Assembly (NCBI RefSeq): GCF_053078305.1
Contig: NZ_CP166879.1
Reading direction: 5' to 3' (one strand)
Length of the DNA stretch: 64,000 nucleotides
Below the pieces are notes generated by a model. It had not been told where the DNA came from, searched no databases, and was given only the letters and a program-made list of their open reading frames with translations. Below, in pieces: positions 41,415-64,000 of this stretch. Position numbers and translations under genes: made by a program. How positions within the stretch are numbered: position 1 is the first letter of the stretch; each line of letters opens with the position of its first letter.

Positions 41415-42151
41415 TGCGTCGTTTATTGTCTGTCGCACCTGTCCTTCTCTGGCTGATTACGCCCCTCGCCTTCGCGCAACTGCCGGGTATCACCAGCCAG
41501 CCGCTGCCTGGCGGTGGACAAAGCTGGTCGCTCCCGGTGCAGACGCTGGTGTTCATCACCTCGTTGACGTTTATTCCGGCAATTTTACTGATGATGACCA
41601 GTTTCACCCGCATCATCATTGTTTTTGGTTTATTGCGTAACGCGCTGGGAACGCCCTCCGCGCCACCTAACCAGGTATTGCTGGGGCTGGCACTGTTTTT
41701 GACCTTTTTTATTATGTCGCCAGTGATCGACAAAATTTATGTCGATGCGTACCAGCCATTCAGCGAAGAGAAAATATCAATGCAGGAGGCGCTGGAAAAA
41801 GGGGCGCAGCCGCTGCGTGAGTTTATGCTGCGTCAGACCCGTGAGGCAGATTTAGGGTTGTTTGCCAGACTGGCGAATACCGGCCCGTTGCAGGGACCTG
41901 AAGCCGTGCCGATGCGCATTTTGCTCCCGGCCTACGTGACCAGCGAGTTGAAAACCGCATTTCAGATAGGCTTCACGATTTTCATCCCTTTTTTGATTAT
42001 CGACCTGGTGATTGCCAGCGTGTTGATGGCATTGGGGATGATGATGGTCCCCCCCGCCACCATTGCTCTGCCCTTTAAACTGATGCTGTTTGTACTGGTG
42101 GATGGTTGGCAATTGCTGGTCGGTTCGCTGGCGCAGAGCTTTTACAGCTAG
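41414..42151 (+). CDS. fliP: flagellar export apparatus protein
   Basis: 245 aa. Confidence 0.95.
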
Positions 42152-61639: not shown

Positions 61640-61981
61640 GTATTCTCATGATAACGCCTCGATGCCGCTTTAGTAAGTCATCATAACTGCCACTGGTCCA
61701 TCCACAAACGCCACTGAACGCAAGCTAGCTACAGACACGCTCATCACTATGACGTGTCTGTATATTAATAAGCTAACCCGCATTGAGTTAACCAATAACG
61801 GATTCCATACATAATACGGCCAACAGAGAAAGATACCTGTGCTCACGCCATTGCTTATATTGGCTGGTTACAATGTGCACTATCAATTTTTTAAATAACA
61901 AATTCTTAAAACCACATCTGTATAAGGAATTTTTAAGGTTCGTGGGATAGCTTGACTGTGAAAATCACAGGAGCTACAAAA

Positions 61982-62512
61982 ATGAACCGATTCTCAAAAA
62001 CTCAAATTTATTTACATTGGATAACGCTGCTTTTCGTTGCAATAACCTATGCCGCGATGGAACTCCGTGGCTGGTTTCCTAAAGGTAGTAGTACTTATCT
62101 GCTAATGCGAGAAACACATTACAATGCGGGTATATTCGTTTGGGTGTTAATGTTTTCACGCCTGATTATAAAACACCGTTATAGTGATCCTTCTATTGTG
62201 CCACCGCCACCTGCCTGGCAAATGAAAGCGGCTTCGCTAATGCACATCATGCTTTATATAACCTTCCTTGCACTTCCTCTGCTGGGGATTGCTTTGATGG
62301 CTTACAGTGGAAAATCGTGGAGTTTCCTTGGTTTCAATGTGTCTCCCTTTGTTACCCCAAACAGCGAAATTAAAGCACTGATAAAAAATATTCACGAAAC
62401 CTGGGCAAATATAGGCTACTTTTTAATCGCAGCTCACGCTGGCGCAGCACTCTTTCATCACTACATTCAGAAAGATAATACTCTGTTACGAATGATGCCT
62501 CGCCGCAAATAA
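61982..62512 (+). CDS. yodB: cytochrome b561 family protein
   Basis: Starts MNRFSKTQIYLHWIT; four TM helices with conserved His. Confidence 0.9.
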   Translation: MNRFSKTQIYLHWITLLFVAITYAAMELRGWFPKGSSTYLLMRETHYNAGIFVWVLMFSRLIIKHRYSDPSIVPPPPAWQMKAASLMHIMLYITFLALPLLGIALMAYSGKSWSFLGFNVSPFVTPNSEIKALIKNIHETWANIGYFLIAAHAGAALFHHYIQKDNTLLRMMPRRK

Positions 62513-63070
62513 GTCGATCCCCTGACAAGGAAATGTGAACCATGGACATCAACGCGTCATAAATGTTTACGCAAGTGCACAATGCACCCTTTCCACTATC
62601 AACAAGGAGGAGCAGAAACTGTGTAAATCGTACAATGGTAAGACTTATCAAAAATACAGGTTAATTTTGGTATTTAAACCTTTTTTACTTGTTAGTATGA
62701 TACAAAGGCTTTCAAAAAAGCTGGGAAATTCAACAACTCTTGGAAATTATGGACTTTGTCCCGCGGCTTTAATCTGACGGCCGCGTTCCTTTTTTGACTC
62801 AATTATTGACCCCTTCTCTACGCAACTTCGGTTCCCACCACCAACTTTGCGGCAGTTTCATAGGATGAATGTCTAAAAGAATAATGGTGAGCGATAAGAA
62901 AACGACTGAATAACTGCACATTTTCGCTCGAAAGCTTCCTGTCAGATCCATAGCGAATCAAGTGCTGAATGTCACAGTATCGAACAGAAAACAGTGACGA
63001 TCTAACCCTTCAAGAATATTCTACGATTGTTCTGTTTAGGAAAAGCAAGGCGGGAAGTCGGGAGATAAGT

Positions 63071-63131
63071 CATTGATAAAGTGGCGGAGAGAGGGGGATT
63101 TGAACCCCCGGTAGAGTTGCCCCTACTCCGG
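63071..63131 (-). pseudogene. tRNA-Ser (serU-type) 3' fragment, 5'-truncated; probable integration-site core copy
   Basis: Reverse complement matches tRNA-Ser from the anticodon arm through T-arm, acceptor 3' strand and CCA; similarity stops after ...ttttcgagacc at 63131. Confidence 0.75.
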
Positions 63132-63352
63132 TTTTCGAGACCGATGATACCGAACCGTAAAATCAAAAGGTTATAAATTTTTCTTGGAATAAATGTCTTA
63201 AAAACATACACGCAAAATCAATAAATTACGCGAAATTTGAGAAGAATATTCCAAGCCTTCTTTGAGTTATTTTTAACCATCTTGCTGTTTTTCTTTCTGA
63301 TAAAATATTGCCTGATATCCCTTAACATTACTAATACTTGCGTAGTGAATGT

Positions 63353-63682
63353 ATGAACAATCCGAATCCATGCATGACGTGTGGTGCCTGTTGTGCATTT
63401 TTCCGCGTCTCTTTTTACTGGGCTGAAGCCGATGATGCTGGCGGTACTATTCCCGCCAGGCTCACTGAACAAATATCCCCTTTTCACCGATGCATGAGCG
63501 GTACCAATCAGAAAAACCCCCGATGTGTCGCTCTGGCGGGAACTCCGGGTAAAAACGCATATTGCTCTGTTTACAAAAACCGTCCGTCCACATGCCGGGA
63601 ATTCGCAATGTCCGGAGAAAATGGCATCGCGAATGATGCATGCAACCGCGCACGGGCAAAATACGGACTTCCGGAAATCTGA
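63353..63682 (+). CDS. YkgJ-family (UPF0153) cysteine-cluster protein
   Basis: [21 protein letters not shown]... with CxxCxxCC and later Cys motifs; lies beyond the tRNA fragment. Confidence 0.6.
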
Positions 63683-63810
63683 AAATTATCCATATCAACA
63701 GAGTGCTCCTGAAACAAGATCAGCATCACGTACAGAATTAACATTTCCGTGGCAGTATTCGTCCGGCATAGTGTATACCTTCACAATAATGACATAATCA
63801 ACGCAGTTCA

Positions 63811-63840
63811 TGGGGGAGGTGATGGTCCCCCATCTTTTTG
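63811..63840 (+). terminator. rho-independent terminator
   Basis: Hairpin gggggaggtgatggtccccc followed by tcttttt. Confidence 0.55.
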
Positions 63841-63845
63841 TCTGT

Positions 63846-64000
63846 TATTCCTGTGCCCAGCCAACCCTGTATGCCAGTATCTCATCCGCACTGGTCAGCT
63901 TTTCCAGCTCCTTCTTCATGGTGCGCTGCCGGACGTGGATTTCCATCCCTTTGGTGAACATCGCCTGCTCTGCCGCTTCACTCAGCGCTATAAGCTCTTC
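63846..64000 (-). CDS. hypothetical protein, C-terminal part only (5' end beyond window)
   Basis: Open frame to the window edge ending ...KLTSADEILAYRVGWAQE then stop at 63846-63848. Confidence 0.4.

Follow-up and report, generated by a model that had tools for sequence, protein, structure and literature searches.

The yodB–serU gap of Escherichia coli as a mosaic of a yodB flank, a probable small RNA gene and a Rho-stopped tRNA trailer beside a prophage

Results

A non-coding gap of three segments lies between yodB and serU

In the window (the whole 64,000-nucleotide stretch of DNA analyzed here), yodB occupies positions 61982–62512 on the plus strand, and directly after its stop codon begins a gap of 570 bp (62513–63082), which ends at the 3' end of a minus-strand fragment of the tRNA gene serU (63083). 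In K-12 MG1655 the yodB–serU gap measures 569 bp and contains no annotated feature (subtracting 1980386 from an NC_000913.3 coordinate gives the window coordinate), in agreement with the spacing expected in a preliminary description of the interval 62513–63070. That description also took the interval for a non-coding spacer, and this reading is borne out. ARAGORN called no intact tRNA in the gap region, and the six open reading frames of at least 25 codons found there (80, 50, 47, 36, 35 and 33 aa) matched nothing in Pfam or NCBIfam at E≤1, i.e., no protein gene was detected by homology. Nor are the frames kept across alleles: elsewhere among the alleles, those of 50 and 47 aa are interrupted by stop codons or altered at many amino acids, and the 80-aa frame begins within a segment that is absent from many strains. 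The small-ORF supplement of Stringer 2021 has no entry at the gap coordinates, and the literature, searched with the two gene names and with strings of the sequence, yielded no mention of the yodB–serU locus in main texts.

The same description regarded the interval as probably conserved host DNA and proposed a comparison across E. coli genomes. Within the species the claim stands: the interval was found in 5421 of 5426 complete E. coli genomes, mostly at 95% identity or more, with no annotated feature beneath it among the matches listed. Beyond the species it does not stand. When serU loci of other genera were located via MtfA homologues, homology to K-12 was seen to end 0–20 bp past the serU 3' end in Salmonella, Citrobacter amalonaticus and a close Escherichia-like relative (whose MtfA is 91% identical), and the genes neighboring serU differed as well. 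Likewise, nothing resembling the gap follows yodB in Citrobacter, Hafnia, Salmonella and Pragia, and no tRNA is present there.

Aligning the alleles resolved the gap into a mosaic of three segments, A (62513–62634), B (62635–62803) and C (62804–63082). Segments B and C together are covered to at least 80% in 5342 of the 5426 genomes, and neither was found at an equivalent place outside E. coli in the yodB and serU loci compared. Segment A, for which no strand is assigned, occurs in the yodB-positive haplotype only: ~44% of the genomes match the query only from base 123 onward, and these are the genomes that lack yodB. In SJC33 and EAEC 042, two such strains, the match to the window breaks off at the stop codon of zinT (61639) and is taken up again at 62635, and in yodB-less strains 220 unrelated bp stand in place of the 995 bp between these points. 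It follows from this break that segment A belongs to the yodB cassette, as its 3' flank.

The cassette as a whole (61640–62634) is a presence/absence polymorphism, in which the 995-bp block comprises the yodB upstream region, yodB itself and the 122 bp that follow. The yodB form is present in ~56% of the complete genomes, and the yodB-less form is that of B2 and D strains, among others; one junction coincides exactly with the stop codon of zinT and the other lies at exactly 62635. Some 100 bp downstream of zinT, both haplotypes carry a hairpin of the form AGACACG...CGTGTCT (61730–61770 in the window; 1365–1410 of L014) despite their unrelated surroundings, and in the yodB-less form it is followed by a T-run. 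This hairpin is probably the zinT terminator.

Segment B has the layout of a small RNA gene

Segment B (62635–62803, plus strand), which we read as a small RNA gene module, is present in nearly all E. coli and has a homologue in the late region of lambdoid prophages. A promoter scan marked a promoter-like element at 62673–62701, consisting of a −35 hexamer TTTAAA (62673–62678), a 17-nt spacer and a −10 hexamer TATGAT (62696–62701). Among the 35 distinct variants of the B family, TTTAAA is kept in 34, and a TANNAT hexamer stands exactly 17 nt downstream in every one. From folding, a published 3' end and a 5' end placed by the promoter, we predict a small RNA of ~89 nt (62707–62795, plus strand), made up of a 5' hairpin (62707–62722), a single-stranded middle of ~28 nt (62723–62750), a small GGAC-UUU-GUCC hairpin (62751–62761), a GC-rich terminator hairpin (62762–62785) and a U-run encoded by six T (62790–62795), the last of which is the mapped 3' end. 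The RNA would thus have a Rho-independent terminator with a U-tail forming its 3' end. A 5' hairpin, a single-stranded middle, a small hairpin and an intrinsic terminator with a U-tail make up the typical architecture of an Hfq-binding, base-pairing RNA. None of the Rfam 15 covariance models matched 62513–63000 at E≤1.

Strains devoid of yodB also keep the B transcription unit. In our proposal, a sigma-70-type promoter (TTTAAA-17-TATGAT) would drive the ~89-nt RNA, making segment B a self-contained small RNA gene; we infer the start site of the RNA, its independence from yodB and any target assigned to it. Elsewhere in the window, at 41796–41878 on the minus strand, the covariance model built for this RNA gave a weak match (16 bits, E 0.041), which is most likely a generic terminator with a GC hairpin and a T-run.

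The expression data that bear on the gap all come from K-12, rather than from the strain of the window. In RIL-seq, the second position in a chimera is typical of small RNAs. Term-seq in K-12 recorded an "orphan" plus-strand 3' end at 2043181, equivalent to 62795, in the sheets for two growth conditions out of three (Adams et al. 2021, PMC7815308, Supplementary file 1); judging by position in the file, these two sheets would be LB OD 2.0 and M63, and not LB OD 0.4. In addition, Bar et al. 2021 (PMC8175672, Table S1), in which the Hfq RIL-seq experiments of Melamed et al. 2016 were re-analyzed, lists an entry at the level of the intergenic region, "yodB.serU.IGR", in two data sets, with low counts of 39 and 33 chimeric fragments, a U-tract of 6 and the RNA always second in the chimera. 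Published RIL-seq thereby places an RNA from the yodB–serU intergenic region among those associated with Hfq, with small RNA scores of 0.010 and 0.046, i.e., below the authors' cut-off of 0.1 (PMC8175672). The feature values of its single exponential-phase partner equal those of the ompF CDS row, suggesting that this partner is ompF; predicted duplexes between the small RNA and ompF were no better than those of shuffled sequences. The Cappable-seq and SMRT-Cappable-seq supplements contain no entry for the yodB–serU locus.

These data could also be accommodated if B were only a long 3' UTR and terminator, belonging to yodB (or to zinT in yodB-less strains), with inert hexamers. The promoter-like element is not significant on its own, and the scan found no more sites than expected by chance; the low RIL-seq classifier scores point the same way. 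Moreover, no other Term-seq 3' end lies between the yodB stop codon and 62795, which in yodB-positive strains could partly mark the end of a 283-nt yodB 3' UTR. Against this stand the constant second position of the RNA in the RIL-seq chimeras, the survival of the B unit in strains without yodB, and the hairpin and T-run that zinT has of its own ~100 bp downstream in the yodB-less haplotype. The prophage relatives of B, described below, weigh on the same question.

Relatives of segment B occupy a fixed place in lambdoid prophages

Over its whole length, B aligns with DNA of phage vB_EcoS-683R6, of the SerU-LTIIb prophage and of chromosomal prophages, the B-like prophage element being present in chromosomal prophages of 238 of the 5426 genomes and in 79 IMG/VR prophage contigs. 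Its surroundings are uniform: to the left of the phage copy, within 1.5 kb and on the opposite strand, lies a holin gene (64 of 64), and to the right, again on the opposite strand, lie phage tRNA genes (67 of 70). Standing beside an oppositely oriented holin gene, these copies cannot be the 3' UTR of a yodB-like gene, and they keep the hexamers and their spacing without any co-oriented gene upstream. Together with a covarying hairpin that sits exactly at the predicted start of the RNA, this makes the 3' UTR reading unlikely, and we proceed with B as a small RNA gene.

Covariation is seen in paired parts of the RNA. In the 5' hairpin, the paired arms read GCUUU/AAAGC, CCCC/GGGG, CUCC/GGAG or CUCUC/GAGAG, i.e., substitutions on one side are compensated on the other; the pair at the foot of the terminator loop is compensated as well (C-G versus U-A), and the unpaired middle varies between lineages. 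In a 21-sequence alignment, 95.8% of the cells were paired, versus 39–54% when the partners were slid, and compensatory changes on both sides were found in 5 of 17 pairs, giving a covariation score of 0.240 that none of 500 shuffles reached. A covariance model built from the phage copies only matched the chromosomal copy at 62722–62794 with 53.3 bits (E 2.6e-11), and found no match in the loci of other species or in YYZ-2008, ev099 and mEp332. At the level of aligned sequences, these comparisons establish that the predicted RNA is homologous to a prophage family and that its structure is conserved, with changes on one side of a pair compensated on the other.

Several prophage-encoded RNAs invite comparison. 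Like DicF, PasA/PasC/PasD, STnc100 and AsxR/AgvB, the B RNA has a length of ~80–90 nt, a promoter-like element, a U-tailed intrinsic terminator and recovery with Hfq, and like PasA, PasC and PasD its phage copies lie in the late region adjoining the holin–lysozyme genes. It matches no Rfam family, neither STnc100, AsxR, AgvB, Esr41 nor any other; unlike the known prophage small RNAs, it is oriented opposite to the late genes, and its chromosomal copy belongs to the core genome and is not confined to pathogens. It also differs from PasA in sharing no sequence similarity with the locus in phage YYZ-2008, the PasA reference named in a preprint; identity with PasA/PasC, which in Stx phages are encoded between the esterase and holin genes, was rejected on this blastn comparison (word size 7).

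Searching the phage B copies with Rfam gave no family match to the RNA itself, and the only hits nearby were tRNAs and weak STnc100-like and STnc370-like matches. The STnc100-like matches (minus strand, L034 2732–2928 and L037 1791–1988) have E-values of 0.14–0.2 and score under the gathering threshold; they lie between the phage tRNAs and the holin gene, convergent with the phage B copies, and the STnc100 family is related to PasD.

As for the origin of the chromosomal copy, B most likely derives from a decayed lambdoid prophage. The prophage would have brought it into the chromosome, where it would have become fixed before E. coli diversified, a direction of transfer that we infer. In prophages, the RNA would lie antisense to the stretch of late transcript that joins the phage tRNAs to holin, and may set the timing of lysis or the processing of that transcript. 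The 3' half of the chromosomal RNA is nearly identical to the phage copies, making pairing in trans with phage late transcripts possible; the chromosomal RNA could then pair with the transcripts of such phages, whether resident or just entering the cell, and brake lysis. That B is a domesticated phage regulator, acting either as such a host-encoded brake on lysis or through a new seed against host mRNAs, e.g., ompF, is a speculative and decidedly improbable proposition.

The serU trailer ends at a Rho-dependent stop

Segment C (62804–63082, minus strand) comprises the 3' trailer of serU, with the Rho termination region known from K-12, and the bacterial arm of attL. The published Rho termination region lies at 2043225 on the minus strand, equivalent to 62839 (Adams et al. 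2021, PMC7815308, Supplementary file 2), the coordinate being approximate since it was derived from 800-nt windows. With a Rho score of 38.97 (p 2e-241), it is among the strongest in the published table (PMC7815308). DirectRNA-seq counted 7705 reads upstream and 24 downstream of this position without bicyclomycin, and 9053 upstream and 1099 downstream with the drug (PMC7815308); in K-12, then, transcription of the serU trailer ends by bicyclomycin-sensitive termination. The nearest other minus-strand 3' end, and the only one nearby, is that of the mature tRNA at 2043468 (PMC7815308).

No intrinsic terminator, i.e., a hairpin followed by a T-run, was found on the minus strand of the gap; the trailer has a weaker predicted fold than its shuffled versions (z +1.56), and its first 50 nt contain 17 C versus 4 G. 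This C-rich stretch may well serve as the Rho loading site. In its C-rich, G-poor composition, the lack of a hairpin with a T-run and a read-through that is bicyclomycin-sensitive, the serU trailer resembles other Rho-dependent tRNA terminators. RNA polymerase reading past serU would be stopped by Rho before reaching B, and, given the B 3' end at 62795 (plus strand) and the Rho site at 62839 (minus strand), two convergent stops stand ~44 bp apart within the gap. The preliminary description had allowed for a tRNA terminator or a small RNA in this interval, and evidence for each has come to hand: for the former, the Rho-dependent termination region published for K-12, and for the latter, the Term-seq 3' end, the recovery with Hfq in RIL-seq and the structured homologues in phages.

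It might be asked whether the gap is simply neutral filler, conserved because E. coli is young, with 3' ends and RIL-seq reads that amount to noise. The expression signals are indeed modest, and variation in B and C falls within the range of neutral E. coli divergence: among 7 alleles, 6 of 140 sites vary in the B core versus 22 of 285 in C, so that B is only modestly lower. Noise, however, would hardly place a 3' end exactly at a terminator or yield a Rho signal among the strongest published, and neutral drift fits poorly with a promoter that is kept and with compensatory base-pair changes across a diverse phage family. We give this explanation scarcely any credence, and retain the reading of B as a small RNA gene and of C as a Rho-stopped trailer.

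The gap forms the bacterial side of a prophage attachment site

Beyond segment C, the window agrees with K-12 serU at every position as far as 63142, and the two sequences part from 63143 on. The 3' 60 nt of serU, a tRNA-Ser(CGA) gene, thus remain as the att identity segment (63083–63142, minus strand, as delimited by comparison with K-12), over which Rfam gives a partial tRNA-like match. The DNA that follows (63143–63262, no strand assigned) is 93–98% identical to the arms of serU prophages, namely to the DNA that adjoins the serU fragment in the SJC33 and SerU-LTIIb prophages, as well as in a fossil copy carried by ev099 and mEp332, and we consider it the phage-side arm. After it come a YkgJ-family gene and a DUF4376 gene, i.e., the tail-fibre end of a prophage. 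With host identity reaching to 63142 and an arm common to serU prophages beyond it, the interval, the serU fragment and the phage arm together form attL, and we read segment C, the 60-nt tRNA fragment and the arm as the attL of a lambdoid prophage in serU, a reading that is graded below as part of that of the whole gap. The preliminary description had expected an attachment site here; the interval does constitute the bacterial arm of attL, but the crossover identity segment (63083–63142) lies just outside it.

In these respects the locus follows the habits of phages that integrate at tRNA 3' ends: 60 nt of the serU 3' end are duplicated, starting from the anticodon-loop region, beyond the displaced fragment the host DNA continues as it was, and the prophage adjoins with its tail-fibre end. 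The Stx1d prophage at serU–yodB is a known case of serU integration (PMC9729726). The SerU-LTIIb prophage is another with its attB in serU, and by comparison nothing at the window site is unusual.

An inverted-repeat search of the phage arm found the motif CTTGGAAT as an inverted pair (63183–63190, plus strand, and 63248–63255, minus strand). The same motif occurs twice, in direct orientation, between the intact serU and int in SJC33 (L025 8189–8260). As candidates judged by sequence, the CTTGGAAT copies may be integrase arm-type sites.

The window ends at 64000, ~860 bp into the resident element, so that the intact serU and the int end fall outside it. Up to this point the element contains the YkgJ-family cysteine-cluster gene (63338–63682) and the end of the DUF4376 gene on the minus strand. 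Across 63143–64000, no match above 96% identity was present in the 5426 complete genomes, and only 5 genomes gave a coverage of at least 80%; the resident element is a rare variant of a prophage end. Occupation of the site is itself common: 19 of 58 sampled full-coverage genomes have no annotated tRNA-Ser adjoining the spacer, which, for this 58-row sample, suggests that serU is occupied in roughly one third of genomes. In strain A21 (L031 1148–1848), the identity to serU covers only ~12 nt of the tRNA 3' end and is followed by a tyrosine recombinase gene; this is a different element, using the same site with a much shorter overlap.

Lambda-like phages carry a copy of the serU junction

Segment C, the tRNA fragment and the arm also occur together, at 96.5–97% identity, in phages ev099, PhiR70_1 and mEp332, and in some "plasmids" of 35–64 kb. 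Within a larger block, in the order IS remnant, AraC gene, C, core and arm, they were found away from mtfA and in unrelated prophage contexts in 549 of the 5426 genomes.

Such copies raise the question of whether C is of phage origin, namely the P arm of an ancient serU phage that still serves as attP in phages of the ev099 type. The high identity of C and the tRNA fragment in free phages would suit this origin, as would the absence of a counterpart in other genera and a 23-nt imperfect repeat on both sides of the core. Yet the integrase gene of ev099 is that of lambda and is directly followed by the lambda attP core, so this phage integrates elsewhere and not via C. Furthermore, in the SJC33 prophage, one of the serU prophages that share the other arm, int lies only 27 bp from the intact serU with no copy of C, so C is not its int-side arm; the block also sits in prophage contexts that are unrelated to one another. 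The 23-nt repeat itself, tried as a pair of integrase arm sites, was rejected, since it has only two copies and their count is not above chance. A phage origin of C is, in our judgment, highly improbable, and C is read here as host DNA, the trailer of serU.

The most plausible reading of the phage-borne block is that of a fossil, non-functional attL from a serU lysogen: C, the tRNA fragment and the phage arm would have been captured later, from such a lysogen, by lambda-like phages. As in specialized transduction of the lambda gal type, 279 bp of host DNA run on without a break into the tRNA fragment and the phage arm, just as in attL; unlike in that case, the junction is now an inert passenger of the b region, and its carriers use the lambda int and attP. 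In the phage genomes, the fossil (279 bp of host trailer, 60 nt of tRNA and the phage arm) lies in the b region beside an IS remnant and an AraC-family gene, as seen in ev099 (L017 1368–3959), mEp332 (L016), L026 and L027.

Discussion

Taken together, these results lead us to read the yodB–serU gap as E. coli-specific non-coding DNA that combines the arm of an attL, a small RNA gene in segment B and a Rho-stopped serU trailer in segment C, a reading to which we assign a probability of about 0.7. The mosaic make-up of the gap, the prophage relatives of the small RNA and the capture of the trailer by lambda-like phages are additions to the preliminary description.

K-12 is the best-annotated bacterium. 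On this reading, the gap would nonetheless hold, in K-12 itself, an expressed and structurally conserved small RNA gene that is nameless in RefSeq and belongs to no Rfam family, and serU gains a documented Rho-dependent stop. The DNA beside a tRNA attachment site moreover circulates in lambda-like phages as a fossil junction, which can mislead the prediction of att sites and prophage boundaries, ~10% of genomes carrying a second copy of the trailer. With relatives of the B RNA standing at one fixed position in lambdoid prophages, the reading, if true, would give E. coli a core-genome small RNA of phage descent, and lambdoid phages a new family of late-region RNAs.
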